Assembly: GCA_964358855.1 (NCBI GenBank)
Contig: CAYHQQ010000011.1
Coordinates: 11,546 to 75,545 of the forward strand
DNA: 64,000 nt
Reading direction: 5' to 3'
From: an uncultured Phycisphaeraceae bacterium
GTDB taxonomy: Bacteria > Planctomycetota > Phycisphaerae > Phycisphaerales > UBA1924
Part shown: in pieces, positions 6,160 to 25,893 of the stretch
Layout: every line of letters starts with the position of its first letter
How positions within the stretch are numbered: position 1 is the stretch's first letter
Position numbers and translations under genes: made by a program
The notes under the pieces: generated by a model
What the model saw: the letters and a program-made list of their open reading frames with translations, nothing else
The model's database searches: none
What the model was told of the DNA's origin: nothing

Positions 6160-6228
6160 GTTTGTTTTGGGCCTGCCCCGAGGCCTACGATGGGCGGTTG
6201 TGATGGTCTGTTCAACTGGTCTGTCTTT

Positions 6229-7252: not shown

Positions 7253-8050
7253 TCAAGGCGAAGCAGCGTGGGAAGTCCAGTCCGCTTCAATCCGAGCATT
7301 GATCTCTCGCATGTCTGGCGCGAGAGACGTTGCGCGTGAGACATCACCTGCGAGCGAGCGACCGGCTTCGATGTTGATCCCGGCGAGCAAACCATCCATG
7401 TAGAAGGCAGGGCCACCGCTGTCGCCCGGCGCCAACGGGGCGTCATGCTCGACCCACTTCAGGGAGCCATCCGTCGAACCTCCGACGCCAACGACGTGTC
7501 CTGCGGAGAGTCGAGTCGATTTGATGCCGCTCCCTACGCACACCACGGTTTCACCGACGCGCGCCGTTGGAGCCACATCAACAGGCGAGATCCCGACTGG
7601 CAGCGGCGCGTAGAGGAGCGCCAGGTCGTTGCCGGGAGCGGTGCTGCGCCAGACGACACGAGCGGAAAGGGTTCGTTCACGGCCGTCAGTCGATGGGTCA
7701 TAGATCAACACGCCGCCGGAGTCAGTGCAATGGGAGGCCGTGAGCCAGTACCCGCGAGCATCGATCGGGACCGCCGCGCAACCACCGATGGTTCGACAGA
7801 CCTGACCGTTCAGGCGGAACACCCCTTGCACGCCGGAGCGGGCGAGGTGGAGATGCTCGACTTCGTCTGTCCCGGTCAGCAATGCCGTGCAATGGGCGGA
7901 CGCGAACTGCGGAAGGGGCGATCCTCCGACCAGTTTGTCATCGACCAGCGTCATCGAAACGTGCTTGCGACTGTCAGTTCCGGCTGAGCATCCGCCGATC
8001 GTCAGAGCAAGAAGTAGCGGAATCCCAACGCATTCGATTGCTCTAGGCAC
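7253..8050 (-). CDS. trypsin-like (S1 family) serine protease lipoprotein
   Basis: Lipobox LLLALTIGGC. Catalytic triad contexts TASHC, NDLALL and GDSGGP are all present. No ATG is available; GTG 8050 (GAGGAG 7 nt upstream) is preferred over TTG 8053. Confidence 0.85.
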   Translation of the reverse strand: MPRAIECVGIPLLLALTIGGCSAGTDSRKHVSMTLVDDKLVGGSPLPQFASAHCTALLTGTDEVEHLHLARSGVQGVFRLNGQVCRTIGGCAAVPIDARGYWLTASHCTDSGGVLIYDPSTDGRERTLSARVVWRSTAPGNDLALLYAPLPVGISPVDVAPTARVGETVVCVGSGIKSTRLSAGHVVGVGGSTDGSLKWVEHDAPLAPGDSGGPAFYMDGLLAGINIEAGRSLAGDVSRATSLAPDMREINARIEADWTSHAASP

Positions 8051-8110
8051 CAAGTTACTCCTCTACAAGAGCCTTGCCCCCCCCCAAACTCCAGCGAGGC
8101 GATTACATCA

Positions 8111-10127: not shown

Positions 10128-10149
10128 GGGGAACGGACTCCTAGTCCAC

Positions 10150-10183
10150 AGGGAACAGGAAGCCCGGTGGGCTTATTCCGTGC
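10150..10183. promoter_or_regulatory. bipartite palindromic motif, copy S5 (AGGGAACAG-N16-ATTCCGTGC; on the minus strand it reads GGAAT-N18-GTTCCC)
   Basis: 15/18 match to the S1/S2 motif with an identical 16-nt spacer. On the minus strand it sits 23 nt upstream of the small-lipoprotein ATG (10127). The spacer is itself self-complementary (GAAGCCC-ggt-GGGCTT). Confidence 0.45.
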
Positions 10184-10263
10184 CTTTGGGACCGGCCTCG
10201 CGGAAGCCATAGGCGAACACGGCCACCCAGCACGGCCGTCACGGCGTGGGGGCTTCACGCCGC

Positions 10264-10297
10264 ATGGAATACCAGCATACCCGTCGCCATTCCCCTT
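10264..10297 (+). promoter_or_regulatory. bipartite motif, copy S3 (ATGGAATAC-N16-ATTCCCCTT)
   Basis: 14/18 match to S1/S2 with an identical 16-nt spacer. It lies 47 nt upstream of the DUF2934 gene ATG (10345). Weak on its own. Confidence 0.35.
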
Positions 10298-10344
10298 CGT
10301 GACTCGACGCGATTACCGACCGCAACGAAGCGAAAGGACCGTCC

Positions 10345-10687: not shown

Positions 10688-11146
10688 ATGCCCAACACCC
10701 ATGAACCAGCCGCCGTCCGCCCGCACCAGCCCAGCGATCCGGCAAGCGCCGCCCCGCGTCCCGCGCGGATCGCGCTGGTGGGCCACTGCGGGCCGGACTC
10801 GTGGATGCTCAAGGGGGTCGTCGCCCGCGCCTTCCCCGGGGCTGAGGTCGCGATGGTGAACGACACCGCGTCCGCGCAGGCCCACGCCGAGAAGGCCGAC
10901 CTCTTGCTGGTGAATCGCACACTCGACGGCGACTTCTTCGCCGGCTCGGGACTCGACCTGATCCGCGTCCTGCTGTCGGTGGCGAAGCGTCACGCCGCGC
11001 TCATGCTCGTGAGCAACCACGCCGATGCCCAGGCGCAGGCCGAAGGCCTCGGCGCAGCGCCGGGGTTCGGCAAGTCCAAGGCCGGCTCGCCCGAAGCGGC
11101 GCAGCGGATGCGTGCCGCCGTAGCGCACGCAGCCACGCGGCCGTAG
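10688..11146 (+). CDS. hypothetical protein, receiver-like (possible pseudo-receiver)
   Basis: ATG 10688 has GAAGGA 7 nt upstream. The beta-alpha pattern IALVGHCGPD / ADLLLVNRTLDG / GLDLIRVL / ALMLVSNH / GFGKSK resembles a CheY-like fold, with Asn where the phospho-Asp would be. Competing antisense ORFs are Arg-rich. Confidence 0.55.
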   Translation: MPNTHEPAAVRPHQPSDPASAAPRPARIALVGHCGPDSWMLKGVVARAFPGAEVAMVNDTASAQAHAEKADLLLVNRTLDGDFFAGSGLDLIRVLLSVAKRHAALMLVSNHADAQAQAEGLGAAPGFGKSKAGSPEAAQRMRAAVAHAATRP

Positions 11147-11232
11147 ACCCACGCGGTCTCGCGGCCCTGGAACGAGACGAGCCGAGCGTGTGTGTCGGCT
11201 TGCCCTGGCCTCCCGCTGAAAGGAGATCGCTC

Positions 11233-11778
11233 ATGCGAGTAACCGTCACCGACACCGACATCCAGCGTGCCTTCGAGATCGTCAGGGGCGACCCCTGCTT
11301 CGCCGAGAGCGTGGCTGCGATGAAGGCCGGTAAACGACCCGGCGAGATGCTCCAGGCCATGTCACTCCGCCCCGAACTGCTCGCGGGCTTCTCCAAACTG
11401 GGCGAGGGCTTCTACCCCGGCGGCATCGTCGAGCGTGACCTCAAGGAACTGGTCATCCTCGAATCCTCCCGTTCCAACGCCTGCCAGTTCTGCACGGGCG
11501 TACACGTCGTCATCGCCCGCATGATGGGCATCGGCGACGACCCGCTGAGATTGCTCGACGAGCCGCAGCGACAGACCGCCCGCCAACGCCTCGCGCTGGA
11601 GTACACCAGGGCCGCGATGGCCGACTCCAACCGCGTGAGCGACGACCTCTTCGCCCGGCTGAAGACCGTCTTCACCGACGCGGAGATCGTGGAGATCACG
11701 TTTCTGATCGGGAACATCAACTGCCTGAACCTATTCAACAACTGCCTGCGGGTGATGTACCACGGGGAGTACGACTGA
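11233..11778 (+). CDS. carboxymuconolactone decarboxylase / AhpD-like family protein
   Basis: Trimmed to ATG 11233 (AGGAG at 11221-11225). SRSNACQFCTGVH is a CxxC motif typical of the AhpD/CMD fold. Confidence 0.8.
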   Translation: MRVTVTDTDIQRAFEIVRGDPCFAESVAAMKAGKRPGEMLQAMSLRPELLAGFSKLGEGFYPGGIVERDLKELVILESSRSNACQFCTGVHVVIARMMGIGDDPLRLLDEPQRQTARQRLALEYTRAAMADSNRVSDDLFARLKTVFTDAEIVEITFLIGNINCLNLFNNCLRVMYHGEYD

Positions 11779-12024: not shown

Positions 12025-12843
12025 TTACAGTCCCAGCATCTTCGCCATCATCCTGGCCTTGTGCAGCAGCGACATGGCGGGCGGGTTCGCCGCGTTGTGG
12101 TGCAGGACCAGCACGGTGAGGTCGTCGGTCCGCGTGCCGGGCTGCCAGCCGAACTCGGCATCCACCGCAGCAATAAGGGAGCGGCCGAAGACCGCCGGGT
12201 CGGCCCCGCCGACGGTGCGGGCCAGGGCGAGCAGGCCCTCCTCGCCGATTGATTTGGCGGGCGGGCCGCCCGTCTCGATCAGGCCGTCGGAGTAGAGCAC
12301 GACCAGGTCGCCCTTGCCCAGCGTGACGGCGAACTGGTGGTACTCGGTGGGGTGGATGATGCCCAGCGGCAGGCCGCCCGACGATGCCGTGCCGCTCGTG
12401 TGTTCGTGCGACAGGAGCGACCACGTGCCCGAGGCGGCGTGGTACCAGAGCGGCCGGGGGTGGCCCGCCAGGCAGGCGATCAGCTCGTCGGTGGGCGCGA
12501 AGTAGGTCGCCAGGGCGGCGGTGGCGAAGATGCCGTTCTTGCTGAGCCGCCCGAAGGCGCGGTTGAGGGCGCGGGCGAAGCGGGTCTGGTCGGGGGTGCC
12601 CACGTGCTTGCGCATGAGCGTCCGCAGGTCGAGCGCCAGGTCATCCACGGCGGTGCCGTGCCCGGCCACATCCGCGAGCACGAAGCGGGCGATGCGCCCC
12701 TCGCCGCACATCGAGACGTAGTGGATATCGCCCCCGCTCGCCTCGCCGTGGTACGGCTGGCTGTAGAGCCAGGCGTCGATGCCGTGCACCGAGATGCCGC
12801 TCTCGGCGGCGATGTTGCCGCCCCAGACCTCCATGCATTGCAT
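12025..12843 (-). CDS. PP2C-family (SpoIIE/RsbU-type) serine phosphatase, stand-alone catalytic domain
   Basis: Motifs MEVWGGN, ASGGDIHYV, FVLADVAGHG, VVLYSDGLIE and DDLTVLVL. Trimmed to ATG 12843. The start is uncertain (no strong SD; the ORF extends to 12984). Confidence 0.8.
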   Translation of the reverse strand: MQCMEVWGGNIAAESGISVHGIDAWLYSQPYHGEASGGDIHYVSMCGEGRIARFVLADVAGHGTAVDDLALDLRTLMRKHVGTPDQTRFARALNRAFGRLSKNGIFATAALATYFAPTDELIACLAGHPRPLWYHAASGTWSLLSHEHTSGTASSGGLPLGIIHPTEYHQFAVTLGKGDLVVLYSDGLIETGGPPAKSIGEEGLLALARTVGGADPAVFGRSLIAAVDAEFGWQPGTRTDDLTVLVLHHNAANPPAMSLLHKARMMAKMLGL

Positions 12844-12886
12844 CGTATGTGAGTGCGGGGACTCTTTAGGCAGCGGGATGGCATGT

Positions 12887-13252
12887 TCAGTCGCGGGGAG
12901 CAACGTTTGGATTCTCGCGGAAGTGGGGATCGAGGAGCGTGATGAGGGCGCAGCGGGCCCGGTGCAGCATACGGGCGACTTCACCGCGCGGCAGGTCCAG
13001 TTGCTGAGCGAGTTCGTCCTTGCTCATGCCTTGGCCATCGTGCAGCCGGGAGATTGTTTGATACGGGTCGGGCAGACGAGCGATCGCGGCCAGCACGATC
13101 TCGCGGTCGAGCTCGTCGCTCGCCGCGTTGGTGTCTCGCCACGGGCCGTGCGGACGAACGGCACGGCCGCTGGCGTCGAAAGCTGGCAGTAGGTCGTCGA
13201 GTGCATCGCTGGAACAACGCATGGCGGGGACGGTTGACTGCCGGAGGCTCAT
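12887..13252 (-). CDS. sigma-70 region-4-only HTH protein (121 aa)
   Basis: ATG 13252 overlaps the MTA-phosphorylase stop as ATGA. The C-terminal part (REIVLAAIARLPDPYQTISRLHDGQGMSKDELAQQLDLPRGEVARMLHRARCALITLL) matches ECF sigma region 4.2. No region-2-like sequence is visible. Confidence 0.7.
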   Translation of the reverse strand: MSLRQSTVPAMRCSSDALDDLLPAFDASGRAVRPHGPWRDTNAASDELDREIVLAAIARLPDPYQTISRLHDGQGMSKDELAQQLDLPRGEVARMLHRARCALITLLDPHFRENPNVAPRD

Positions 13253-14199
13253 GGGCAGCCTCCGGGGTTCTGAGCCGACAACTCCGGGAAGTATCGCCCC
13301 CAGATCGGACGCAGGCGTTCGACCTCGGCGGCGGGGATCAGGTCCTTCTTGGTCCAAATACCGAGCTTCAAGGCGTCGTGCGCGGGGCTCGGATGATCGC
13401 GGAGCATCGACACATCGCGCAGGGCGGCTTCGATGAGTTGGGCCGCGGCGTCGGCGCTCTTGTGCAGGTTGCCGATGATCTCCGTGAGCAGCGATTCGGG
13501 GGCTTGGCCCGGCCTTGGCTTCCGCTGCTTCCAGCAGTCGTAGTCGGTGGGCAGGGTGATGAGGGCGTAGGCGATCTCTGCCTCGCGGGCCAGGCGGGCC
13601 TCGGGCAGAGCGGTCATGCCGACCACGTCGGCTCCAAACGCCCGGTGCATCTCGCTCTCGGCCCGCGTGGAGAACGCGGGGCCGTCGATGCAGATGTAGG
13701 TGCCGTCGGGATAGACCTCGATGCCCTTCTCGTTTACGCGCGGCGCGGCGGACTGGAGCCAGTCTCGCATCACAGGGCAGCAGGGGTCGGCGAACTCGAT
13801 GTGGACGGCGGCAGAATCAAAGAACGTGCGGTCGGCGCCACGCGCGCCACTCCCGCTGGTGCGATCAATGAGTTGGTCCACCAGCAACACGCCGCCGGGG
13901 CGGATCTCCTCCCGCAGCGAGCCGACCGCGCCGGTGGCGACGATGTGCGTCACGCCGAGAGTCTTGAGGGCGTAGATGTTCGCCCGGTACGGCGCGCGGT
14001 GCGGCGGAATGGTGTGCCCGGTGCCGTGACGCTTGAGGATGGCGAGTTGGATGTCGGTACCCGCGAGCCTTCCGATGGCGATGGGAGCGCTCGGCGGACC
14101 GAACGGGGTTTGGACCTCGACGGCTTCGGGCGATTCGAGCAGCCCGCTCGCCGAGAGCCGGTCTTCCAGGCCGCTGCCTCCGATGATGGCGATCCGCAT
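13249..14199 (-). CDS. mtnP: S-methyl-5'-thioadenosine phosphorylase (MTAP/PNP family)
   Basis: MRIAIIGGSGL...TPFGPPSAPIAIG...ILKRHGTGHTIPPHRAPYRANIYALKTLGVTHIVATGAVGSL is a classic MTAP signature. GGAG lies 6 nt upstream of ATG 14199. Confidence 0.9.
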   Translation of the reverse strand: MRIAIIGGSGLEDRLSASGLLESPEAVEVQTPFGPPSAPIAIGRLAGTDIQLAILKRHGTGHTIPPHRAPYRANIYALKTLGVTHIVATGAVGSLREEIRPGGVLLVDQLIDRTSGSGARGADRTFFDSAAVHIEFADPCCPVMRDWLQSAAPRVNEKGIEVYPDGTYICIDGPAFSTRAESEMHRAFGADVVGMTALPEARLAREAEIAYALITLPTDYDCWKQRKPRPGQAPESLLTEIIGNLHKSADAAAQLIEAALRDVSMLRDHPSPAHDALKLGIWTKKDLIPAAEVERLRPIWGRYFPELSAQNPGGCP

Positions 14200-14299: not shown

Positions 14300-14337
14300 A
14301 GAAGGGAATAGGGCCGGGCCCTCGCCTATTCCCTTCT
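14300..14337. promoter_or_regulatory. bipartite palindromic motif, copy S1 (AGGGAATAG-N16-ATTCCCTTC inside a perfect 13-bp inverted repeat)
   Basis: AGAAGGGAATAGG (14300-14312) and CCTATTCCCTTCT (14325-14337) are exact reverse complements. The site lies in the divergent mtnP/arsM intergenic region, 83 nt upstream of the arsM ATG. It reads GGAAT-N18-ATT on both strands. The 18 core positions are identical to S2. Confidence 0.65.
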
Positions 14338-14419
14338 GACCAGCCCGTGCACCCGAACAGCACCGGGATGCACCCGGCCGGAGACGTTTCGGATTACCGC
14401 TACTGGGAGCAGACAACGC

Positions 14420-15670
14420 ATGAGCAACGCGACCTTGAATGGAACGACACACAACAATGGCTCGGCGAAGCCCGCCCCTCATGCTGAGCCCGAGACGCCG
14501 CATGGTGTTGACGCCATCGAGGGCGCGGTGCTCGGCCGCTACGCCGAGGCGTCGAAGGCTCCCGAGGCCGCGTTGTGCTGCCCGACCATCAACTATGACA
14601 AGGCCCTGCTCGCCATGCTGCCGCAGGAGATCATCGAGAAGGACTACGGCTGCGGCGATCCGAGCAAATACGTCGGAGAAGGCGAGACCGTCGTCGATCT
14701 CGGGTCGGGCGGGGGCAAGGTCTGCTACATGATCTCCAAGAAGGTGGGGACACGCGGGGCGGTCCTCGGTGTGGACTTCAACGATCCCATGCTCGCGCTG
14801 GCCCGCAAGTACCAGGGCGAGATGGCGGGCAAGATCGGCTGGGCGAACACATACTTCGTCAAGGCTCGCATCCAAGACATGGGGCTGGACCTTGATGCGC
14901 TGGCCGCGTGGCTGGCGGAGCACCCGGTGACGACGCTCGACGCCGCCGACGCGCTCGAAGCCGAGAAGCGCCGCATCCGCGCCCACGCGCCTGCGGTGCC
15001 CGGCGACTTCGCCGATGTGGTGGTCTCCAACTGCGTGCTCAACCTCGTGGCCACGGACGAGAAGGGAAAACTATTCGACGAGATCTTCCGCGTGCTCAAG
15101 AAGGGCGGGCGGGCGGTCATCAGCGACATCGTGTGCGACGAGACGCCGCCCGAGTCGATGCGGAATGACCCGCACCTGTGGAGCGGGTGCATCTCCGGGG
15201 CCTTCCGCGAGGACGAGTTCCTGGAGCGGTTCGAGAAGGCCGGGTTCCACGGGATCGAAATACTTGAACGTGCCACCGAGCCGTGGCAGGTGGTCAACGG
15301 CATCGAGTTCCGGTCGATGACCGTGCGGGCGTACAAGGGCAAGCAGGGGCCGTGCTTCGAGCACAACCAGGCGGTGGTCTACAAGGGGCCGTGGAAGAAG
15401 GTCGTGGATGACGATGGGCACACGCTGGTCCGCGGCGAGCGGATGGCGGTGAGCGACAAGACGTATCAACTGATGACCGATGCGAAGGGGCCGTACTCCG
15501 GGCAGGTCGTGGGCATCGAGCCGCGCACGCCGATCGCCGCCGAGGAGGCCAAGCCGTTTGCTTGCCAGAAGCAGGCGACCCGCGATCCGCGCCAGACCAA
15601 GGGGCTCGACTACCGCGAGACCATCGCCGCCGATAGCGAGTCTTGCTGCACAGACGGCTCGTGCTGCTGA
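14420..15670 (+). CDS. arsM: arsenite S-adenosylmethionine methyltransferase-like (ArsM family)
   Basis: Conserved Cys contexts ALCCPT and YGCGDP. SAM motif VVDLGSGGG. VVSNCVLNL...FRVLKKGGRAVISDIV. Cys-rich tail CCTDGSCC. Sits two genes upstream of an ArsS-like radical SAM gene. Confidence 0.8.
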   Translation: MSNATLNGTTHNNGSAKPAPHAEPETPHGVDAIEGAVLGRYAEASKAPEAALCCPTINYDKALLAMLPQEIIEKDYGCGDPSKYVGEGETVVDLGSGGGKVCYMISKKVGTRGAVLGVDFNDPMLALARKYQGEMAGKIGWANTYFVKARIQDMGLDLDALAAWLAEHPVTTLDAADALEAEKRRIRAHAPAVPGDFADVVVSNCVLNLVATDEKGKLFDEIFRVLKKGGRAVISDIVCDETPPESMRNDPHLWSGCISGAFREDEFLERFEKAGFHGIEILERATEPWQVVNGIEFRSMTVRAYKGKQGPCFEHNQAVVYKGPWKKVVDDDGHTLVRGERMAVSDKTYQLMTDAKGPYSGQVVGIEPRTPIAAEEAKPFACQKQATRDPRQTKGLDYRETIAADSESCCTDGSCC

Positions 15671-15730
15671 GTTCTTCCATCGTTTGATCTGTTCGTGGTC
15701 CCGCGCGAGTCGCGGGCACTTGGAGTGTGC

Positions 15731-16885
15731 ATGGCTGTTGCTCTCATCATCGCGGTGCTCTGGCTGGCCTACAGCAACGGAGCCAACGACAACTTCAAGG
15801 GTGTCGCGACGCTCTACGGCAGCGGTGCGGCCACGTTCAATCGTGCCCGGATGTGGGCGACGTTTGCCACGCTCGCCGGGAGCCTTGTGTCCGTCGTGCT
15901 CGCCGCGACGCTCGCCAAGCAGTTCACGGGAAGCGGGCTGGTGCCCGCGGAACTCGCCAGCAGTTCGGCGTTGCTCGTGTCGGTCGGCGCGGCCGGCGCG
16001 GCGACCGTGCTGCTCGCGACCTTCCTCGGCATGCCGACCTCGACGACGCACGCGCTCACTGGCGCGCTCGTGGGCGTCGCGCTGCTCGTCAACGGCGGTA
16101 CGGTGCCCCTCGCCAAACTGTGGACGAGCTTCTTCATGCCGCTCCTGGTGAGCCCGGTGATAGCGGTAGCGCTCGCAGGAGGGATGTACCTGGTCCTTCG
16201 CCGCCTGCGTCTGGCGATGGGCGTCACCCGCGAGACCTGCGTATGCGTCGGTCCGTCGCGGACGCTGGTTCCCGTGGGCCTCACCGTTGGAGGCTCGGGC
16301 ACCACTTCGTCATCGTTCCACACGGGAGCCGGCCCGAAGGGTCTGAGCGTGACGATTGGCAAGACCTCGCAGTGCGTCGAGCGGTACTCGGGTACGCTCG
16401 TCGGCGTCGATGCCCAGACTGCGGTCACCACCGTCCACTACGCCAGCGCGAGTGCGGTCTGCTTCGCCCGCGCCGTCAACGACACACCCAAGATCGCGGC
16501 GCTGCTCATGGTCGGCGAGGCCATCGCGGGTTGGAAGCTCGCCGTGGTGGCCGCGGCAATGGTCATGGGCGGCCTCATCCAGTCTCGCAAAGTCGCCGAG
16601 ACCATGAGCAAACGCATCACCGCACTCAACCCGGGCCAGGGCCTCACTGGCAACTTCGTCACGGCCCTGCTCGTCATCGGCGCCTCGCGTCTCGGGCTGC
16701 CCGTCTCCACAACGCACGTCTCGGTCGGGTCGATCTTCGGGATCGGCATCGCTGGCGGGAATCCCCAATGGAAGACCGTCGGTCACATCGGCACGGCCTG
16801 GCTCACCACGCTCCCCCTCGGCGGCGTGCTGGGCGCAGGTCTGTACTACCTTCTCACCCACGCCCATCTCGCCTCAGGCCAGTAA
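15731..16885 (+). CDS. PiT-family (PHO4) inorganic phosphate transporter
   Basis: Trimmed to ATG 15731 (GGAG at 15722-15725). SNGANDNFKGVATLYGSG and the C-terminal repeat TTHVSVGSIFGIG are the paired PiT signature motifs. Multi-TM throughout. Confidence 0.85.
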   Translation: MAVALIIAVLWLAYSNGANDNFKGVATLYGSGAATFNRARMWATFATLAGSLVSVVLAATLAKQFTGSGLVPAELASSSALLVSVGAAGAATVLLATFLGMPTSTTHALTGALVGVALLVNGGTVPLAKLWTSFFMPLLVSPVIAVALAGGMYLVLRRLRLAMGVTRETCVCVGPSRTLVPVGLTVGGSGTTSSSFHTGAGPKGLSVTIGKTSQCVERYSGTLVGVDAQTAVTTVHYASASAVCFARAVNDTPKIAALLMVGEAIAGWKLAVVAAAMVMGGLIQSRKVAETMSKRITALNPGQGLTGNFVTALLVIGASRLGLPVSTTHVSVGSIFGIGIAGGNPQWKTVGHIGTAWLTTLPLGGVLGAGLYYLLTHAHLASGQ

Positions 16886-16906
16886 GCACGCTCGGAGTCT
16901 CTCTTT

Positions 16907-17995
16907 ATGCTCGTCCCCACCAACACTTTGTCGCCTGACTCCGCGTGCCGCATGTCCGGTGAGCGCCCCGATTCCGGCACGGTCGGCCTTACCGTCAACG
17001 GTTCGCGCCCGGGGGAGTGGGAGGCAAACGCCTTCGACCGCGCCATCGAGTCCGCGACCGGCTCGCTCCGCGCGGCGGATATTCGCACGTTCCAAGTCAA
17101 CGTGGGCCTCAGGTGCAACCTCGCGTGCCACCACTGCCACGTCGAGAGCGGCCCCAAGCGGACGGAAGAGATGAACTGGGGCACGATGGCGATGGTGCTG
17201 GAGGCGGCACGGCAGGCCCGGGCACACACGATCGATATCACCGGCGGCGCGCCGGAGATGAACCCGCACTTCCGCCGCCTCGTCTCCGCCGCCAAGGCCC
17301 AGGGCCACGAGGTCATCGTCCGCACCAACCTGACCATCGCACTCGAACCCGGCTACGAGGACCTCCCCGAGTTCTTCGCCGCGCAGCGTGTTCACCTGGT
17401 CGCCTCACTCCCGTGCTATCTCGAAGTGAACGTGGACATGCAGCGCGGCCGGCACGTCTACGCCGAGAGCATCGAAGTCATCAAGCGGCTCAACGCGATC
17501 GGCTTCGGGATCGACCCGGCCCTGCCGCTCGACCTGGTCTACAACCCCGGCGGCCCCTCGCTCCCACCGCCGCAGGGCGCGCTCGAAGCCGACTACCGCC
17601 GCGAGCTGGACCGCCAGTTCGGCCTGCGCTTTACGCGGCTCTACACGATCACGAACATGCCCATCGGCCGCTTCCAGCACGACCTGGACCGGAGCGGGAA
17701 GGGGACCGCGTACAGGCAGAAACTCCGCGATGCCTTCAACCTCGCGACCATCGAGCCGCTCATGTGCCGCCACCAGGTCCACGTGAGCCACGACGGCACG
17801 CTGAGCGACTGCGACTTCAACTACGCCCTCAAGCTCCCGGTCAACCTCGACGACCCGGCCTCACCGCGTCACGTGCGCGACCTGCTCAGACCTGGATCGA
17901 TCGAAACCTTTAGCCGTCGCTCGATCGCCACCGGCGAGCACTGCTTCGCCTGCACCGCCGGGTGTGGCTCGTCGTGCGGAGGAGCCCTCGCATGA
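16907..17995 (+). CDS. arsS: radical SAM / Cys-rich-domain protein, ArsS-like (arsenosugar biosynthesis radical SAM family)
   Basis: CNLACHHC is a CX3CX2C radical-SAM cluster motif. The C-terminal CFACTAGCGSSCGG tail matches, from memory, the Cys/Sec-containing tail of the TIGR04167 family. Lies in an arsM neighbourhood. Confidence 0.8.
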   Translation: MLVPTNTLSPDSACRMSGERPDSGTVGLTVNGSRPGEWEANAFDRAIESATGSLRAADIRTFQVNVGLRCNLACHHCHVESGPKRTEEMNWGTMAMVLEAARQARAHTIDITGGAPEMNPHFRRLVSAAKAQGHEVIVRTNLTIALEPGYEDLPEFFAAQRVHLVASLPCYLEVNVDMQRGRHVYAESIEVIKRLNAIGFGIDPALPLDLVYNPGGPSLPPPQGALEADYRRELDRQFGLRFTRLYTITNMPIGRFQHDLDRSGKGTAYRQKLRDAFNLATIEPLMCRHQVHVSHDGTLSDCDFNYALKLPVNLDDPASPRHVRDLLRPGSIETFSRRSIATGEHCFACTAGCGSSCGGALA

Positions 17996-18035
17996 AGTTC
18001 TCGGACAGATCAAAGAGAAGAATTTCTCGTCCACA

Positions 18036-18055
18036 TCTGGACCGATCGTTCCAGA
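18036..18055. promoter_or_regulatory. 20-bp palindrome O1 (TCTGGACCGATCGTTCCAGA), candidate TetR operator
   Basis: 9/10 symmetric pairs. Lies 45 nt upstream of the tetR ATG (18100). 15/20 positions are identical to O2. Confidence 0.45.
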
Positions 18056-18099
18056 CCGGCTATGGTTCTGCCGATCATCGCAATTGGAAGCACCCACCC

Positions 18100-18678
18100 A
18101 TGCCCTGGAAGAAGAACTTCGATGTCGACGTTGCCCGGGACAGGGCCAAGGCCCTGTTCTGGTCCAAGGGGTACGAGGCGACCTCGATGGAGGACCTGCT
18201 GGGCTGCATGGACATCAATCGGGGAAGCTTCTACGCCACGTTTGGCAGCAAGCAGGCGCTGTACCTCGATGTCCTGCAGCGGTATGACCAGCACTACCGC
18301 TGCGGCGTGCTCGACCAACTCAAGGCTGAGTTCACCCCTCGCGAAGCGATTCTGACGCTGTTCGAGGCGGTCCGAAAGGAAGCCGCCGGCGCGAAGGGCA
18401 CGCGGGGGTGTTTTCTCGCCAACGCAACGATGGAGCTCGCCGCCTCTGACAAGTCCGTTGCCAAAATCGTCGGTGTTGCATTCAGCCAGACCGAGGCGTT
18501 CTTCAAAGCCATGATCGAGCATGGCCAGGCCGACGGCACGATCCGCGCCAGCGCAGATCCGGATGTCGTCGCCCGGTCTCTTCTCGGTCTGCTGCTTGGC
18601 ATGCGGGTGTTGGCTCGCGGCGGGTCGCCCGCGCCGGTGCTTGAGTCGATCGTTCAGCAAGTGAAGGAGTTGCTCTAG
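18100..18678 (+). CDS. TetR/AcrR-family transcriptional regulator
   Basis: Trimmed to ATG 18100 (GGAAG upstream). The N-terminal HTH (ARDRAKALFWSKGYEATSMEDLLGCMDINRGSFYATFGSKQALY) is typical TetR_N. Confidence 0.88.
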   Translation: MPWKKNFDVDVARDRAKALFWSKGYEATSMEDLLGCMDINRGSFYATFGSKQALYLDVLQRYDQHYRCGVLDQLKAEFTPREAILTLFEAVRKEAAGAKGTRGCFLANATMELAASDKSVAKIVGVAFSQTEAFFKAMIEHGQADGTIRASADPDVVARSLLGLLLGMRVLARGGSPAPVLESIVQQVKELL

Positions 18679-18718
18679 AAGTCACGCCGCGCGCGTCGCG
18701 GCACAACGTCTGTCCAGA

Positions 18719-18738
18719 TTTGGAACGAGTGTTCCAAA
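18719..18738. promoter_or_regulatory. 20-bp palindrome O2 (TTTGGAACGAGTGTTCCAAA), candidate TetR operator
   Basis: Perfect 8-bp arms TTTGGAAC/GTTCCAAA with a 4-nt centre. Lies 33 nt upstream of the AhpD-like gene ATG (18771), immediately downstream of tetR. Confidence 0.45.
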
Positions 18739-18770
18739 CATTCAATGGTTCGGTTTCCAGGAGTATCGTC

Positions 18771-19370
18771 ATGAAGTCCGCTCTCATCAACGTCCCCGTC
18801 CAGACCGTCGAGTCCGCCCCCGCTGCGTCGCGCGACCTGCTCAAGGCCGCCGGGAGCAAGTTCGGCTTCGTCCCCAACCTGCTGGGCATGTTCGCCAATG
18901 CCCCGGCCCTGCTCGAGGGATACCTCACACTCGCCGGGATCTTTGATAAGACCTCGCTCTCGCCGACGGAGCGTCAGGTGGTCCTGCTCGCCGCCAGCTT
19001 CGAGAACGGCTGTGAATACTGCATGGCGGCACACAGCGCCATCGCGGGCATGCAGAAGGTCGACCAAGGCGTCATCGGCGCCCTGCGGGACGGTAATCCG
19101 ATCAGCGACGCGAAGCTGGAGGCCCTTCGTTCGTTCGCCGCCGAGGCTGTCCGCACCCGCGGCTGGCCGTCGACTGAGGCCGTGGCGCGGTTCACCGGCG
19201 CGGGGTACACCCCGGCCCAGGCGCTCGAGGTCGTCCTTGGCATTGGCGTGAAGACGCTCTCCAACTACGCCAATCACCTCGCGGCGACGCCGCTCGACAG
19301 CGCGTTCGCACCCGTGAAGTGGTCCAAGCCCGGCTGCGGGTGCGGCACCAGCGCCTGCGGCACGCGCTAA
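18771..19370 (+). CDS. carboxymuconolactone decarboxylase / AhpD-like family protein (second paralog)
   Basis: Trimmed to ATG 18771 (AGGAG 7 nt upstream). ASFENGCEYCMAAHS is a CxxC motif of the AhpD/CMD fold. Confidence 0.8.
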   Translation: MKSALINVPVQTVESAPAASRDLLKAAGSKFGFVPNLLGMFANAPALLEGYLTLAGIFDKTSLSPTERQVVLLAASFENGCEYCMAAHSAIAGMQKVDQGVIGALRDGNPISDAKLEALRSFAAEAVRTRGWPSTEAVARFTGAGYTPAQALEVVLGIGVKTLSNYANHLAATPLDSAFAPVKWSKPGCGCGTSACGTR

Positions 19371-19511
19371 CCGGTCCCCCTCGTCCCTCCCTCCTCCTGG
19401 CGGATCGGGTGGCCCGCGCGGGCTCAGGCCATGACGCCTAGCACCCCGCGCGGGCGCCCTTCCGCTCAAGAGGTCCACATCGTCCCATCGCATTCACAAA
19501 GGAGTTCGATC

Positions 19512-19766
19512 ATGCCACTGGTTCAAGTCAAAGGTGTGTCCGGGTATCTGTCCAAGGAACAGAAGGCCGAGTTGATCAAGCGTCTGACGGACGCGGTCCT
19601 TTCGGTCGAGGGCGAGGGCCTCCGCCCCGTCACGTGGGTCATCATCGAGGACGTGCCCGAAGGTCAATGGGGCGTCGGCGGCACGCTCGCCTCCGCCCAG
19701 ATGCTCCGCGAGATGGCCGGCAAGCAGCACTGCGCCACCGGCGCCGCCGCCTGCGCTCGCACCTGA
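19512..19766 (+). CDS. 4-oxalocrotonate tautomerase-family protein
   Basis: Trimmed to ATG 19512 (AAAGGAG upstream). MPLVQVKG...SKEQKAELIKRLTDAV has Pro-1 and the beta-alpha-beta tautomerase pattern. Confidence 0.75.
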   Translation: MPLVQVKGVSGYLSKEQKAELIKRLTDAVLSVEGEGLRPVTWVIIEDVPEGQWGVGGTLASAQMLREMAGKQHCATGAAACART

Positions 19767-20006
19767 GTTGCGCAGCCATCGCTACACGCTCTCGCTCTTC
19801 ACACCTCCACGAGCCGGTTTGGGTCGCCCGCGCGGAAGCAGGAGGTGGTCACTCGCGCCTTGAGGCGTGACAACGTCCACCTTCTCCCAGACAACCCCCC
19901 CCATCCCGCACGGGCGCCCGCCGCTCGTCACGTCCGTGTCCCCGTCTGTTCGCTGTTCGCTGAGTCCGTCCCTGTCCGCAACATGTCCCATTTCAAGGAG
20001 TTTCTC

Positions 20007-21041
<1,035 letters not shown>

Positions 21042-21153
21042 ACAACGCCGGCTTCGGCACATCACACCGCGGACGGCGAAGGCGGTCCGTGGCGATTCGT
21101 CTCAACCGTTTCAGAGTCCGCTGTCTGTGCAGTCACCCCAGTGGAGCGACTCC

Positions 21154-21642
21154 GTGGAAGGCAACGCATACCCCAGCGTTCAACGTGTCCTATTGCCACC
21201 CTTCACCCTCGACACCGCGACTAAAAAGGTGCGTGCCGCCGAAGATGCGTGGAACAGCCGTGATCCCAAGCGTGTATCGCTGGCCTACTCGACCAACAGC
21301 CAGTGGCGCAATCGGGAGCAGGGAATCCGCGGTCGCGAGCAGATCAAAGCCTTTCTGCATCGCAAATGGGCGAGGGAGCTCGACTATCGGCTGATCAAGG
21401 AGCTTTGGGCCTTCTCCGACAACAGGATCGCCGTTCGATTCCAGTACGAGTGGCACGATGACGCGGGACAGTGGTTCCGCAGCTACGGCAATGAGCTCTG
21501 GGAGTTTGATGCGGCCGGGCTCATGCGCCGGCGCGAGGCGAGCATCAATGACGTTTCGATCGAGGAGGCACAACGGCGGTTCCGCTGGGACGCGCCAGGA
21601 CCTCGCCCGGTGGCTCATGGGGGCTTGGAAGAGGTGATGTGA
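21154..21642 (+). CDS. DUF1348-family (SnoaL/NTF2-like) protein
   Basis: [24 protein letters not shown]...WRNREQ...[40 protein letters not shown] matches my memory of DUF1348. There is no in-frame ATG. GTG 21154 (GGAG 7 nt upstream) was chosen; TTG 21193 is an alternative. Confidence 0.7.
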
Positions 21643-21731
21643 AGTCGCCACCTCGGGATCATCGGACGCTACCAGATGACCCATTGTCGTTCAACCCAGC
21701 ACCCGCACGCGGTGCAAAGTACAAAGGAGTT

Positions 21732-22511
21732 ATGCCTGTGGAACAGACGTTCTCGAATCGTTCTCTCTTGGTCGTTGGCGGAACAAGCGGGATCGGTCTC
21801 GCTGTCGCACGAGCCGTTCAAGGCTCGGGCGGCACAGTGACGGTGATCGGTTCCAGACCTGAGAAGGCGGCGCGCGCCGCGGTGGATCTCGGGTCCGGTG
21901 GTCGAGCCCAAACGATAGACGTTGCCGCCGAACAGGGTCTCGCCCAACTGCAGGAACTGATTGCGTCCGAGCCGCACCCGTTCGACCTCTTGGTCAATGC
22001 AGCCGGCATCTTCATTCCCAAGCCGTTCGTCGAGCACACCCCGGAGGACTATGACCGATACGCGGCTTTGACACGCGCACAGTTCTTCGTGACGCAGGCC
22101 ATCGCCCGGCGGCTGATCGCCTTCGGCCGCGGTGGTGCGGTGGTCAATATCGGCTCCATGTGGGCGAGGCAAGCGATCGAAGCCACACCTTCGTCGGCGT
22201 ACTCCGTTGCCAAGGCGGGCCTGCATGCGCTCACCCAGCATGCAGCGATGGAACTGGCCAAGCACCGAATACGCGTGAATGCGGTATCGCCGGCGGTTGT
22301 CGAGACGCCGGTGTACGAGGCATTCATCCCGTCCGATCAGGTTCATGCGGCACTGCAGGGATTCAACTCGTTTCACCCGATCGGTCGGATCGGTACCCCC
22401 CGGGACATCGCCAGCGTGGTCGCATTCCTCCTGTCGGATCAGTCGTCATGGGTCACCGGGGCGATTTGGGACGTTGACGGTGGCGTTATGGCTGGCCGCA
22501 ATGTCATTTAG
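21732..22511 (+). CDS. short-chain dehydrogenase/reductase (SDR)
   Basis: Trimmed to ATG 21732 (AAAGGAG upstream). Cofactor motif [11 protein letters not shown] and active-site motif [11 protein letters not shown]. Confidence 0.88.
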
Positions 22512-22545
22512 ACCCAGCGGGCCTCAGGCTCTCGTGCCATCGTCG

Positions 22546-22579
22546 AGGGAATAGTCCGGCCCGGATAGCCATTCCCTTC
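22546..22579 (+). promoter_or_regulatory. bipartite palindromic motif, copy S2 (AGGGAATAG-N16-ATTCCCTTC)
   Basis: Both 9-mers and the 16-nt spacer length are identical to S1. The spacer carries a TCCGG-c-CCGGA inner palindrome. The motif ends 6 nt before the ATG of the TVP38-DUF547 gene (22586), which has no SD. If it is a promoter, the mRNA would be nearly leaderless. Confidence 0.65.
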
Positions 22580-22585: not shown

Positions 22586-24268
22586 ATGAGCCACTCCGCC
22601 GTCGAAACGCCGCCCGTGAACGCTGATCCCTCGGACTCGCGTGCCCAAGGCACGAACGCTGCGGGCGCGGGTGGCTGGGCACAGAAGGCCGTGCGCCTGC
22701 TCTGCTTTGTCATCATCGCGGCGAGTGCGCTGGTCATCCTGCGTGCCCTGCCGACGGCCCAACTGCTGGACCTAATGCAGAAGAAAGTGGCGACGTTCGG
22801 GCCGTGGGGGCCGGTCGTGTACGGCGTCACGTACTTCGTCGCCGCCGTCCTCTTCGTCCCCGGCTCGGCCCTCACGCTCGCTGCGGGCGCGATCTTCGGG
22901 CTTGCCGGGGGATTCGCCACCGTCTCGGTCTCGTCCACCGCCGCCGCCGGGGCATCGTTCCTCATCGCGCGCTACCTCGCCCGCGACAAGGTGCGCAAGA
23001 TGGCCGAGAGCAACCGCACCTTCGGAGCGATCGACAAGGCCATCGCGCAAGGCGGGTGGAAGATCATCGCGCTCCTGCGGCTCTCGCCCGCCGTGCCCTT
23101 CTCCTTGGGCAACTACCTCTACGGGCTGACGCCGGTGAAGTTCTGGCCGTACCTGCTCGCGTCGTGGGTGGCGATGATGCCCGGTACGTTCCTGTTTGTG
23201 TACCTGGGCTACGTCGGTAAGACAGCCGCAGGTGGTGGCGGCGGCAAGAACCCGTGGCAGTGGGTGCTGCTGGGCGCTGGTCTGCTCGCGACGATCGTGG
23301 TGAGCGTGTACGTGACCCGACTGGCCCGCAAGGCCCTGAAAGAGACGTCTCTGAAAGAGGACAGTGTGAAGCGTGACACGAGCGAGAAGTCCGCACAGGT
23401 CGTCAAGTCCGGTCCCAAGCCCGTGGGCAAGCCGATCGTCGCGGCCGGGGTGCTTGCTGTGCTGGCGGCGTGCGCACAGCTCAACAAGGGGCGCCTCGGC
23501 AGCATGTTCGGTCCGCCCAAGGCGACGCCCCACGAGGCCTACGCGAACGCTCCAGCCGGAGCAACGTTCGATCACTCGGCGTTCGATGCACTCCTGAAGG
23601 CTCATGTGAGCACTGAGGGCGGCTTTGTCGACTACGACGCGCTCAAGAAGGATGCGGACAAGCTCGACGCCTACATCGTCGCGATTGGGAAGGCCGATGT
23701 GGACACGCTCGGTCGCGACGAGCGTCTGGCGTTCCTCATCAACGTCTACAACGCTTTCACGCTCCGGCTGATCCTGGACTATTACCCCGTAGACTCGATC
23801 AAGGACATCCCCTCTGACCAGCGCTGGGACGCAAAGCGGTGGACGATTGCCGGCGGCACCTACAGCCTCAACCAGATCGAGCACGAGCTCATCCGCCCCA
23901 AGTTCGCCGAGCCGCGTGTCCACTTCGCGCTCGTGTGCGCCGCGATCGGGTGCCCGCCCCTCCGCAACGAGGCGTACACGGGGGCACGGCTGGAAGAACA
24001 ACTCGCGGACCAGTCGCGCTACGTGCACTCGCACCCCCGATGGTTCCGGTTGCAAGAGGACCGTGGCGAGGTCGAGCTGACCGCCCTTTACGATTGGTAC
24101 GGCGGCGACTTCACGCAGAAGGCGTCGTCGGTGGTTGCCTTCGCGGCACAGTTTTCGCCTGAACTGGTCCGGCTCATCAACTCGGGCAAGGAGCCCCGCG
24201 TGAAGTTCCTGGACTACAGCTGGAAACTCAACAGCGTTGGGAATCGATCGCTTGCGGGCGACAAGTAG
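22586..24268 (+). CDS. TVP38/TMEM64 (DedA-related) membrane domain fused to a DUF547 domain
   Basis: The N-terminal half (VYGVTYFVAAVLFVPGSALTLAAGAIFG...LLRLSPAVPFSLGNYLYGLT) is TVP38/TMEM64-like. The C-terminal half (NVYNAFTLRLILDYYPVDSIKDI...IEHELIRPKFAEPRVHFALVCAAIGCPPLRNEAY) is DUF547-like. Confidence 0.85.
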   Translation: MSHSAVETPPVNADPSDSRAQGTNAAGAGGWAQKAVRLLCFVIIAASALVILRALPTAQLLDLMQKKVATFGPWGPVVYGVTYFVAAVLFVPGSALTLAAGAIFGLAGGFATVSVSSTAAAGASFLIARYLARDKVRKMAESNRTFGAIDKAIAQGGWKIIALLRLSPAVPFSLGNYLYGLTPVKFWPYLLASWVAMMPGTFLFVYLGYVGKTAAGGGGGKNPWQWVLLGAGLLATIVVSVYVTRLARKALKETSLKEDSVKRDTSEKSAQVVKSGPKPVGKPIVAAGVLAVLAACAQLNKGRLGSMFGPPKATPHEAYANAPAGATFDHSAFDALLKAHVSTEGGFVDYDALKKDADKLDAYIVAIGKADVDTLGRDERLAFLINVYNAFTLRLILDYYPVDSIKDIPSDQRWDAKRWTIAGGTYSLNQIEHELIRPKFAEPRVHFALVCAAIGCPPLRNEAYTGARLEEQLADQSRYVHSHPRWFRLQEDRGEVELTALYDWYGGDFTQKASSVVAFAAQFSPELVRLINSGKEPRVKFLDYSWKLNSVGNRSLAGDK

Positions 24269-24282
24269 GACCAGACCCACAA

Positions 24283-25893
24283 ATGACGACTACTCACAAC
24301 GGGACGATCCACGACGCACTATCGGCACACGCCAAGCGATACAACGGTGACAGCACGATGCAGTCTACATTCGATCCGAGTGTTCTGGCCGATCTCCGGC
24401 CTTTGGACGAACACAACTCACGGCTGCTCGAAGCCGTCCATCCGCCCACCTGGAACAACCCCACGCCCTCAGGCCGCTACAACATGGCGGTGATCGGCGG
24501 CGGCACCGCGGGGCTGGTGACGGCGGCCGGTGCGGCCGGTCTTGGGGCGAAAGTTGCACTCGTTGAGCGGAGGTTTCTGGGGGGCGACTGCCTCAACTTC
24601 GGTTGCGTGCCGAGCAAAGCACTGATCCGCTCGGCACGGTCGGTGGGCGACCTCGTTGAAGCGCACCATTATGGGGTCAGGGCGGGATCGGGCTTCGGTG
24701 TCGATTTCCCGGCGGTGATGGAGCGCATGCGCCGGCTGCGTGCGGAGATAGCACCGCACGACTCCGCCGAGCGGTTCCGTTCGCTCGGGATCGACGTCTT
24801 CATCGGTGACGCCAAGTTCACCGGTTCGGACACCATCGAGGTAGGCGGGCAGACACTGCGTTTCGCCCGAGCGTGCATCGCGACCGGAGCTCGTCCCGCC
24901 ACCCCTGCCATCCCCGGGTTGGCAGAGGCCGGGTTCCTGAACAACGAGAACGTCTTCACACTCACCGAGCTGCCGCCTCGGCTGGCCGTGCTCGGCTCAG
25001 GCCCGATCGGCTGCGAGCTCGCTCAGTGCTTCGCACGCTTCGGATCCACAGTGACCGTCATCGAACAGGCTGGCCAAGTGCTGCCGCGTGAAGACCGCGA
25101 TGCCGCCGAGTTCGTGATCAAGGCGATGGGTCGCGACAATGTGATCTTCAGGCTGAACGCCAGTGTGGAACGGGTCGAACAATCTGCCTCGGGCAAGACG
25201 CTGGTGCTCAAGACCGCTGGGGGCGAGGAACGGTTAGAGGTTGACGAGATCCTGGTGGGTATCGGGCGAGCGCCGAACGTGGAGGGCATGGGGCTGGAAG
25301 CGGCGGGCGTGAAGTTCGACGCACGCAAAGGAGTCGAAGTCACGGATGGACTGCGGACCACCAACCCGCGGATTTATGCGGCGGGCGATGTGTGCAGCAG
25401 GTACAAGTTCACGCACGCCGCGGATGCGATGGCCCGGATCGTGATTCAGAACGCGCTCTTCTTCGGGCGCTCCAAGGCGAGCCGACTGGTCATGCCGTGG
25501 TGCACGTTCACGGACCCAGAGATCGCGCACGTTGGCATGTACGAGAAGGACGCCCAGGAGCAAGGCATCGAGACCGACACCATCGCGGTAGAACTCGGCA
25601 AGGTCGATCGGGCCATTCTCGACGGCGAAGATGGCTTGCTGAAGGTTCTCCTACGCAAAGGCTCAGACGAGATTCTCGGCGCAACCCTCGTGTCCAGGCA
25701 CGCGGGCGAGACGATTTCGGAACTCACCACCGCGATCACCCACGGCGTCGGTCTGCGCAAACTCGCGAGTGTCATCCATCCGTACCCGACACAGGCGGAG
25801 GTCATCAAGCGGGCGGCGGACGCTTACAACCGCACCCGCTTGACGCCCGGTGTCAAGAAACTCTTCGAGCGTGTTCTGGCGTGGAGGCGATGA
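24283..25893 (+). CDS. FAD-dependent pyridine nucleotide-disulfide oxidoreductase (class I; the 'mercuric reductase-like' group without metal-binding extensions)
   Basis: GGGTAGLVTAAGAAGLGAKVALVE...GGDCLNFGCVPSKALI shows the dinucleotide fold and the CxxxxC redox centre. No HMA domain and no C-terminal Cys pair. The start is uncertain (ATG 24283 has no clear SD). Confidence 0.85.
   Translation: MTTTHNGTIHDALSAHAKRYNGDSTMQSTFDPSVLADLRPLDEHNSRLLEAVHPPTWNNPTPSGRYNMAVIGGGTAGLVTAAGAAGLGAKVALVERRFLGGDCLNFGCVPSKALIRSARSVGDLVEAHHYGVRAGSGFGVDFPAVMERMRRLRAEIAPHDSAERFRSLGIDVFIGDAKFTGSDTIEVGGQTLRFARACIATGARPATPAIPGLAEAGFLNNENVFTLTELPPRLAVLGSGPIGCELAQCFARFGSTVTVIEQAGQVLPREDRDAAEFVIKAMGRDNVIFRLNASVERVEQSASGKTLVLKTAGGEERLEVDEILVGIGRAPNVEGMGLEAAGVKFDARKGVEVTDGLRTTNPRIYAAGDVCSRYKFTHAADAMARIVIQNALFFGRSKASRLVMPWCTFTDPEIAHVGMYEKDAQEQGIETDTIAVELGKVDRAILDGEDGLLKVLLRKGSDEILGATLVSRHAGETISELTTAITHGVGLRKLASVIHPYPTQAEVIKRAADAYNRTRLTPGVKKLFERVLAWRR

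Follow-up and report, generated by a model that had tools for sequence, protein, structure and literature searches.

A SigH/SigR-like promoter motif predicted to join arsenic and thiol-redox genes to an ECF sigma factor in an uncultured groundwater planctomycete

How might the genes for arsenic methylation and arsenosugar-type biosynthesis be switched on in an uncultured planctomycete? Such genes are usually assumed to be ArsR-controlled or constitutive. The question is raised by a stretch of 64,000 nt (contig CAYHQQ010000011.1, positions 11,546 to 75,545, assembly GCA_964358855.1; hereafter the window) from a Planctomycetota metagenome-assembled genome of Hainich groundwater. A preliminary description of this DNA had reported one bipartite palindrome at two places: S1, upstream of an arsM-like methyltransferase gene, and S2, upstream of an operon that begins with a TVP38-DUF547 gene. 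On the evidence set out below, it is likely that the repeated element is a promoter of the SigH/SigR type, recognized by RNA polymerase carrying the extracytoplasmic function (ECF) sigma factor that is encoded in the same window.

The motif and its conservation

The two reported sites are as described. Identical 9-mers, AGGGAATAG and ATTCCCTTC, flank a 16 nt spacer in each; S1 lies inside a perfect 13 bp inverted repeat (14300-14312 / 14325-14337), S2 ends 6 nt before an ATG, and the spacers hold the inner palindromes GGGCCC (S1) and TCCGG-c-CCGGA (S2). Chance was rightly considered an improbable source, as the 34 nt pattern, allowing up to three mismatches, is found six times in the window, whereas shuffled sequence would yield 0.01 matches. 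The sites are not a pair, however, because four further loci carry the motif (Table 1).

When each site is oriented toward the gene immediately downstream, and S1 is counted twice, all seven oriented sites at the six loci read GGAATA-N15-(C/T)(C/T)(A/G)TT, or, in shorter form, GGAAT-N18-(G/A)TT. The search pattern GGAAT-N18-RTT, which had been proposed from S1 and S2, thus matches every site and also the SigH/SigR-type consensus. The strict oriented pattern GGAATA-N15-YYRTT occurs seven times in the window, where 0.04 matches are expected. GGAATA is invariant, both in the window (7/7) and at the 23 one-way sites found across relatives (23/23), and the -10 triplet follows GGAAT at exactly 18 nt at every site. 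Within that triplet TT is invariant, whilst the first base is A at five and G at two of the window sites, and A at 14 and G at nine of the one-way sites.

A weight matrix built solely on the sites of other organisms, and then run over the 64 kb, recovered precisely the seven window sites with scores of 23-29.7 bits, compared with a maximum of 18.1 in 20 randomized windows; apart from the reverse strands of these sites, nothing else in the 64 kb scored above 12. All six loci are intergenic and all face the adjacent downstream gene, in a window of 65% G+C whose intergenic share is about 12% by the gene model (chance approximately 3e-6). The 33 kb at 31-64 kb, which encode citrate synthase, LpxB, GcvT, exonuclease VII and similar housekeeping proteins, contain no motif site. 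A scan for sigma-70 promoters at S1 and S2 found nothing. The start positions in Table 1 are those predicted from the geometry of the SigH open complex, in which GTT occupies -11 to -9 (PMC6411747).

Table 1. Motif sites with their predicted transcription starts, and the genes of the proposed regulon and its putative regulators
Feature	Position	Strand	Elements or composition	Score (bits)	Predicted start (leader)	Role or genes downstream
S1	14300-14337	both	symmetric promoter element	29.4 (+), 26.6 (-)		mtnP/arsM divergent spacer
S1, plus strand		+	-35 GGAATA 14305-14310; -10 ATT 14328-14330		~14339 (81 nt)	toward arsM
S1, minus strand		-	-35 14332-14327; -10 14309-14307		~14298 (99 nt)	toward mtnP
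S2	22546-22579	+	-35 22548-22553; -10 ATT 22571-22573	29.7 forward, 19.2 reverse	~22582 (~4 nt; ATG 22586)	predicted promoter of TVP38-DUF547 operon
Thioredoxin site	7172-7205	-	GGAATAG-N14-CTGTTCC	26.0	~7169 (88 nt)	exported thioredoxin-like gene
Lipoprotein site	10150-10183	-		23.0	~10145 (18 nt, containing AGGAG)	62-aa lipoprotein open reading frame, DUF3179-AhpC/redoxin fusion, trypsin-like protease
AhpD-block site	10264-10295	+		25.8	~10300 (45 nt)	89-aa DUF2934 open reading frame, hyp152, AhpD/CMD-family gene, hyp78
Sigma-gene site	30984-31015	-	GGAATAGG-N12-GCCATTACC, non-palindromic; -10 ATT 17 nt before sigma ATG at 30970	28.0	~30979 (9 nt)	putative autoregulatory promoter of sigma/anti-sigma operon
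arsM block	14420-18678	+	arsM-like methyltransferase / PHO4-family transporter / arsS (radical SAM) / TetR; further plus-strand genes up to 22511			predicted target
mtnP block	12025-14199	-	mtnP (MTA-phosphorylase-like) / region-4-only sigma-like protein / PP2C phosphatase			predicted target
TVP38-DUF547 block	22586-29499	+	TVP38-DUF547 / FAD-oxidoreductase / GT87 / GT2-DUF2064-GT2 fusion			predicted target
ECF sigma, 201 aa	30365-30970	-	Pfam Sigma70_r2 + r4_2			proposed motif reader
Putative membrane anti-sigma, 317 aa	29415-30368	-	RsrA-like N-terminal domain, one transmembrane helix, C-terminal domain			putative partner of the sigma

The motif recurs in relatives, which we compared as two sets of loci: seven orthologues of the sigma gene with their flanks, from metagenome assemblies (L084-L090, 56-85% identity), and ten arsM relatives (L091-L100, 75-85% identity). 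All seven sigma orthologues have a copy 14-20 nt before the ATG. GGAATA-N15-CC(A/G)TT is exact in six of them and differs by one base in L085, and not one of the seven copies forms a palindrome. The motif also lies upstream of arsM in all ten relatives. In L092-L100 it takes the form of a near-perfect palindrome, GGAATAG-N14-CTATTCC, which stands in the divergent mtnP/arsM spacer wherever the fragment includes mtnP; the short fragment L091 has a less symmetric copy, GGAATAC...CCATTCC, that ends about at the arsM ATG. Across the arsM relatives the arms form a conserved footprint and the spacers are unrelated, so the GC-rich inner palindromes, to which the preliminary description had drawn attention, are present in the window without being conserved. 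Upstream of arsM homologues of 65% identity or less, the motif was not found.

Other predicted targets keep their sites as well. The motif precedes TVP38-DUF547 in L085, L087 and L088, where 10-12 nt separate the -10 triplet from the ATG, as they do at S2, and lies farther upstream in L089. Thioredoxin orthologues with a site are found in L088, L093/L094 and L100, and a DsbH/DsbD_N lipoprotein gene in L092 has its ATG 10 nt after GTT. Two one-way sites stand apart in the window's spacer 10128-10344; the orthologous 89 nt divergent spacer of L088 contains a single perfect palindrome instead. Overall, 41 matches occur in 231 kb of clade loci versus six in 1.88 Mb of all other fetched loci, and of those six, three immediately precede sigma homologues of other phyla.

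On the coding strand the promoter spacer is C-rich in its 3′ half, and CCTCGCC or CCTCGG is frequent just before the -10 (window, L087, L091, L093 and L100). This direction-specific feature may represent an extended -10 element.

The encoded sigma factor and its neighbour

An ECF sigma holoenzyme had been named early on as a candidate reader of the motif, which was the right direction, and the likely regulator is encoded within the window. The sigma has the hallmarks of ECF group 4, namely regions 2 and 4 only, an anti-sigma-like neighbour and a conserved upstream motif. Its closest solved structure is Mycobacterium tuberculosis SigH (E 2e-21), and in the alignment the -35 recognition stretch GTVMSRLHR is identical between the two proteins. 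In the SigH open complex, R186, S182 and M181 contact G-34, G-33 and A-31 of GGAAYA (PMC6411747). The window sigma retains these M-S-R-L-H-R contact residues, plus the equivalents of W81 and I85, whereas its -10 specificity loop is two residues shorter than that of SigH and has T76, N77 and N88 replaced. The combination of the same -35 contacts with an altered -10 loop fits the observed promoters, which have the same -35 and a modified -10 (mostly ATT, with CC or CT before it and a C-rich sequence after it).

Gene order points the same way. In five of the seven relatives (L084, L085, L087, L088 and L089) the sigma/anti-sigma pair and the glycosyltransferase/reductase/TVP38-DUF547 operon converge, and arsS adjoins the pair in L085, L087 and L089. 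A scan of species-representative genomes found no close relative of the sigma; the best match has 46% identity, followed by actinobacterial SigH-like genes at approximately 35%.

The putative anti-sigma gene overlaps the sigma gene by 4 nt. The N-terminal domain of its product gives a weak RsrA match (E 5e-5) and a weak anti-sigma match, and lacks cysteines. The C-terminal, predicted outer domain of about 170 aa belongs to no Pfam family and contains two invariant cysteines, C168 and C217, of which C168 falls in a conserved HEECE(V/L)H-like stretch. In an AlphaFold model (pLDDT >90 for residues 150-317), this domain had no match among PDB folds at E <0.001, with a weak resemblance to RseB only. 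The family is small, comprising 59 homologues, all apparently of Phycisphaerae type.

In two relatives the neighbourhood of a sigma gene differs from that in the window. L096 carries a diverged ECF sigma gene (10871-11461, minus strand; 40% identity) in which the recognition helix reads TDRLYR in place of MSRLHR and which has no adjacent anti-sigma gene. A perfect palindromic copy of the motif (11608-11635) is common to this gene and a divergent TVP38-DUF547 gene, which suggests a sigma cascade in L096. In L084, a serine recombinase, a DUF2924 protein, a Prim-Pol/DUF3987 primase and small open reading frames (961-9141) lie directly upstream of the sigma promoter, replacing the neighbourhood seen in the window.

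Symmetry, direction and alternative readings

The preliminary description took the bipartite palindrome as the functional unit. Conservation argues otherwise, since it is directional: the upstream half is strictly GGAATA, and the looser YYRTT half varies across one-way sites (ATTAC, GTTCT, ATTGC, GTTTC and others). Counted as complementary arm positions out of ten, mean symmetry is 5.4 at the sigma promoters and 6.2 at the other one-way sites, rising to 8.8 where two divergent regulon operons share a site. CTATT occurs at all nine shared divergent sites and at just one of the 23 one-way and sigma sites, the L090 sigma promoter; the other one-way and sigma sites use CCATT, CTGTT or CCGTT. Eight of the nine shared sites have the full consensus on both strands (GGAATAG ... 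CTATTCC), and in the ninth, L098, one arm is reduced to AGGAATAG. Symmetry combined with divergent genes is also found at L088 5892 and L096 11608, besides S1 and L092-L100. Some symmetry is to be expected of any such promoter: read on the opposite strand, the favoured -10 region ATTCC becomes GGAAT, the -35 core. The residual symmetry of S2 is largely a by-product of this consensus.

Given this direction-specific conservation, we read S1 as two superimposed promoters, one for each strand, and S2 as a one-way promoter. At S1 the consensus stands on both strands between divergent genes, the combination expected of a promoter that is bidirectional by symmetry, and the symmetry is complete, so that a single 32 bp element offers a full promoter in either direction. 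The earlier suggestion that S1 could also serve the divergent mtnP operon is made plausible by the near-perfect symmetry in relatives that have the mtnP/arsM spacer, and S1 probably drives mtnP and arsM divergently, firing both ways. With the -35 of each strand occupying the -10 region of its complement, the two predicted starts would lie approximately 40 bp apart and face outward.

At S2, the predicted start lies so close to the ATG that the mRNA would be almost leaderless. This had been one of two possibilities raised at the outset, and it agrees with the 10-12 nt between -10 triplet and ATG in four TVP38 orthologues; the other, a hairpin at the translation start, is disfavoured by the same conserved spacing, which would place the stem outside the S2 transcript. 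The TVP38-DUF547 genes with start codons at this distance (window, L085, L087 and L088), and the DsbH-like lipoprotein gene of L092, have no ribosome-binding site. The implication, as far as sequence can tell, is that this planctomycete lineage makes leaderless or near-leaderless mRNAs.

Several findings weigh against a SigH/SigR-type promoter read by the window sigma. With the SigH_actino model TIGR02947, whose cutoff is 251.55, the sigma reaches 92.6 bits, so it does not count as an orthologue of SigH/SigR, and it passes the generic ECF model TIGR02937 alone. Its partner is not a zinc-binding cytoplasmic anti-sigma, as the HxxxCxxC zinc cysteines are absent and a transmembrane helix is predicted. 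The promoters deviate too, with ATT in place of the canonical GTT at five of the seven window sites, and with a conserved TTCCCT after the -10 element that is absent from the published SigH/SigR consensus. Distant Phycisphaerales sigma homologues (≤46% identity) have no such motif upstream, and the motif scan of the host genome spans 64 kb. Lastly, read in reverse, S2 (19.2 bits) and 7172-7205 (17.8 bits) come close to the null maximum or exceed it with nothing obvious in that direction, and there may be some selection for symmetry per se at these two sites.

Such selection could come from a dimeric protein (the TetR, the region-4-only protein, or an arsenic or redox sensor) for which two GGAAT half-sites 21 bp apart form a symmetric operator that replaces or overlies the promoter. 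The perfect palindrome at S1, its near-perfect orthologues, and the excess of symmetry at S2 and 7172-7205 over what the minimal consensus requires would all suit such a protein, as would the 21 bp centre-to-centre distance, which should set both halves on the same face of the helix; a small protein with a sigma region-4 helix-turn-helix is, furthermore, itself a member of the regulon. Yet an operator should be symmetric at the sigma promoters, where two-fold symmetry is poor, and should not combine an invariant upstream half with a downstream half that varies without covariation. The TetR and region-4-only/PP2C genes are confined to the window and L097, whereas the motif is in all clade loci and its conserved neighbour is the ECF sigma, and the fixed short distance to start codons suits a promoter. 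We consider an operator of this kind unlikely, while an additional protein may exploit the symmetric sites on top of their promoter function. An ECF-type promoter could, alternatively, be read by a different sigma encoded outside the window, with the sigma at 30365-30970 being simply a target in a cascade. Planctomycete genomes usually carry many ECF sigmas, and the protein that actually reads the motif could be a paralogue from another part of the genome, a point that also counts against the window sigma; the diverged L096 gene, with its different recognition helix, sits behind a motif copy and shows that sigma genes can be targets. What makes this arrangement quite improbable is that the window sigma retains the SigH residues that read GGAAYA, that its own upstream motif is kept in all seven orthologues compared (in L085 as the one-base variant), that it adjoins target operons in five of those relatives, and that autoregulation is the norm for ECF sigmas.

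Readings in which the inverted repeat acts as a structure or as a mobile repeat fare worse. A structure might be a terminator, an element for RNA processing or stability, a hairpin at the translation start of S2, or a cruciform. S1 would fold into a stable 16 bp stem (-30.5 kcal/mol, z = -3.1), and S2 lies 35 nt after the stop codon of an upstream SDR gene. The structure prediction that had been suggested for both sites covered four strong sites on both strands and singled out S1 as exceptional; for S2 and the rest, folding was not more stable than in shuffled sequence (z -0.5 to -1.9). No T-tract or terminator-like site was found at S1 and S2, and Rfam and tRNA scans of the window returned only tRNA-Pro, with no Rfam match at any motif site. 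Counted as a hairpin, the 23 one-way sites pair at 68.7% of positions compared with 66.9% in column shuffles, and changes in one arm are uncompensated in the other; the copies before the sigma genes cannot form a stem at all, and the stem would lie upstream of the predicted starts. A functional RNA or DNA hairpin is accordingly very improbable. Least credible is a dispersed repeat of the repetitive extragenic palindromic (REP) or miniature inverted-repeat transposable element (MITE) kind, without a specific regulatory role, which had been named as the explanation should the motif prove scattered. Several copies do lie within 25 kb and share a palindromic core, but only the arms are conserved, amid unrelated spacers and without flanking repeats; every copy in the window is intergenic and oriented to a gene start at a short, conserved distance, relatives have copies at orthologous positions, and the housekeeping half of the window has none.

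Predicted targets and known systems

The preliminary description linked the arsM block and the TVP38-DUF547/reductase/glycosyltransferase block into one predicted regulon, and the motif data support that link. ArsS passes TIGR04167, and the GT2-DUF2064-GT2 fusion passes both TIGR04283 and TIGR04282, the models that NCBI names arsenosugar-biosynthesis glycosyltransferases, making it reasonable to speak of two blocks of one arsenic locus. The predicted regulon is wider, however, and extends past that locus to an exported thioredoxin, the DUF3179-peroxiredoxin fusion, the AhpD-like block and the sigma's own operon. The thioredoxin-like protein has a signal peptide and a CPGC motif, and the 62-aa lipoprotein open reading frame has an AGGAG ribosome-binding site. 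The common theme of the targets is, therefore, exported thioredoxin, peroxiredoxin fusion and AhpD-like genes together with organoarsenical genes, joined in L092 by the DsbH/DsbD_N lipoprotein.

Our data are consistent with a model in which the sigma, presumably restrained by the membrane anti-sigma from the adjacent gene, would once freed read GGAATA as -35 and (C/T)(C/T)(A/G)TT, 15 nt further, as -10. The freed sigma would transcribe its own operon, the exported thiol-redox genes (thioredoxin, DUF3179-peroxiredoxin and AhpD-like) and both arsenic blocks, that is arsM-PHO4-arsS and TVP38-DUF547/reductase/arsenosugar-type glycosyltransferases. Since the targets combine arsenic-transforming enzymes with exported thiol-redox proteins, a plausible if speculative inducing signal is thiol-reactive stress outside the cytoplasm, arsenite included. 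A fuller picture would join a palindromic ECF promoter, loading the same holoenzyme either way for divergent co-induction, to a Phycisphaerae-specific sigma/anti-sigma pair that senses extracytoplasmic arsenite or thiol-reactive stress and controls organoarsenical biosynthesis. Its elements would be the 32 bp element that recurs at several divergent spacers, the invariant cysteine pair of the outer domain, and arsenosugar- or arsenolipid-type products made in company with exported thiol-redox enzymes. We offer this joint picture tentatively, as possible rather than probable.

Several neighbouring genes deserve mention. The mtnP-like gene (13249-14199, minus strand) is divergent from arsM and has the promoter element in common with it in the window and in the eight relatives among L092-L100 (L091 is not one of them) whose fragments reach the gene upstream of arsM. 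Its product is a candidate for the removal of adenine from the 5′-deoxyadenosyl-arsenical that, we presume, ArsS makes. Downstream of mtnP (12025-13252, minus strand) come a 121-aa protein consisting of a sigma region-4 helix-turn-helix alone and a PP2C (SpoIIE-type) phosphatase, a pair found in the window and L097 only. The pair may feed back on -35 sites or be left over from a partner-switching system; the likeness of the region-4-only protein to region 4 of the sigma is generic (34% identity over 47 aa). The PHO4/PitA-family transporter gene between arsM and arsS (15731-16885, plus strand) keeps this place in L085, L089, L092, L094-L097 and L100, and its product could supply the pathway with arsenate or phosphate from outside. 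Adjoining the regulon (32606-36465, minus strand) are genes for a CHASE4-HAMP histidine kinase and a response-regulator/GGDEF/EAL protein, with no motif upstream of either. Just ahead of the first motif-bearing block lie a 1685-aa open reading frame (974-6031, plus strand) and then tRNA-Pro(TGG) (6228-6303, plus strand).

Should the joint picture hold, arsS-type clusters would have the first regulatory circuit put forward for them. For the arsenic-methylation and arsenosugar-type genes of an uncultured groundwater planctomycete, the promoter model itself supplies a concrete candidate regulator, a binding motif and a gene set. By tying the TVP38-DUF547, FAD-oxidoreductase, GT87, DUF3179-peroxiredoxin and mtnP-like phosphorylase genes to one stress response, it also provides leads on their function.

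The closest known systems are SigH of Corynebacterium and Mycobacterium and SigR of Streptomyces, whose promoter consensus is GGAAT-N18-19-GTT, with the -35 given as gGGAAta in Corynebacterium glutamicum and GGAAYA in M. tuberculosis (PMC10012870, PMC9205884, PMC6411747). These ECF12-type sigmas of Actinobacteria resemble the window system in the -35 GGAATA, the 18 nt distance to a TT-containing -10, the -35-contact residues, the autoregulated sigma gene (here predicted) and the thioredoxin-type targets. The window system differs in its host, a planctomycete that is apparently Phycisphaerae-like, and in a sigma that falls below the SigH family cutoff. Its -10 is ATT at most sites, with CC or CT ahead and C-rich sequence behind; its anti-sigma is membrane-anchored, without the HxxxCxxC zinc site and with a novel outer domain; and its targets include organoarsenical genes as well as redox proteins that are exported rather than cytoplasmic. 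The SigH/SigR -35 code, in which GGAATA is read by M-S-R-L-H-R, is thus apparently reused far outside Actinobacteria with a different anti-sigma input.

ArsR is the usual control of ars operons, arsM included. As in those operons, arsenic-transforming genes are here predicted to be under a dedicated stress-responsive regulator. In contrast to them, the window showed neither an ArsR gene nor an ArsR-type operator, and control would apparently run through a sigma/anti-sigma pair common to thiol-redox genes. A literature search found nothing relevant on arsenosugars or ArsS in connection with sigma factors.

For the symmetric form of the promoter, the nearest parallel is the bidirectional promoter arising from sequence symmetry, reported from Escherichia coli and Salmonella for sigma-70 (PMC10268837, PMC12825309). 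Such promoters are like S1 in being pseudo-symmetric elements between divergent genes that could engage RNA polymerase either way. In the sigma-70 promoters two -10 hexamers reportedly overlap, whereas at S1 the whole ECF promoter is palindromic, each strand's -35 doubling as the -10 region opposite. Our literature search, a shallow one, did not turn up any palindromic or bidirectional ECF promoter. If S1 does fire both ways, it would represent a compact design for ECF-controlled divergent operons, with possible use in synthetic biology. Compared with these known systems, what appears to be new here is a SigH/SigR-type ECF promoter in a new lineage, with a different anti-sigma input, predicted organoarsenical targets and a form that is fully symmetric and would probably act in both directions.

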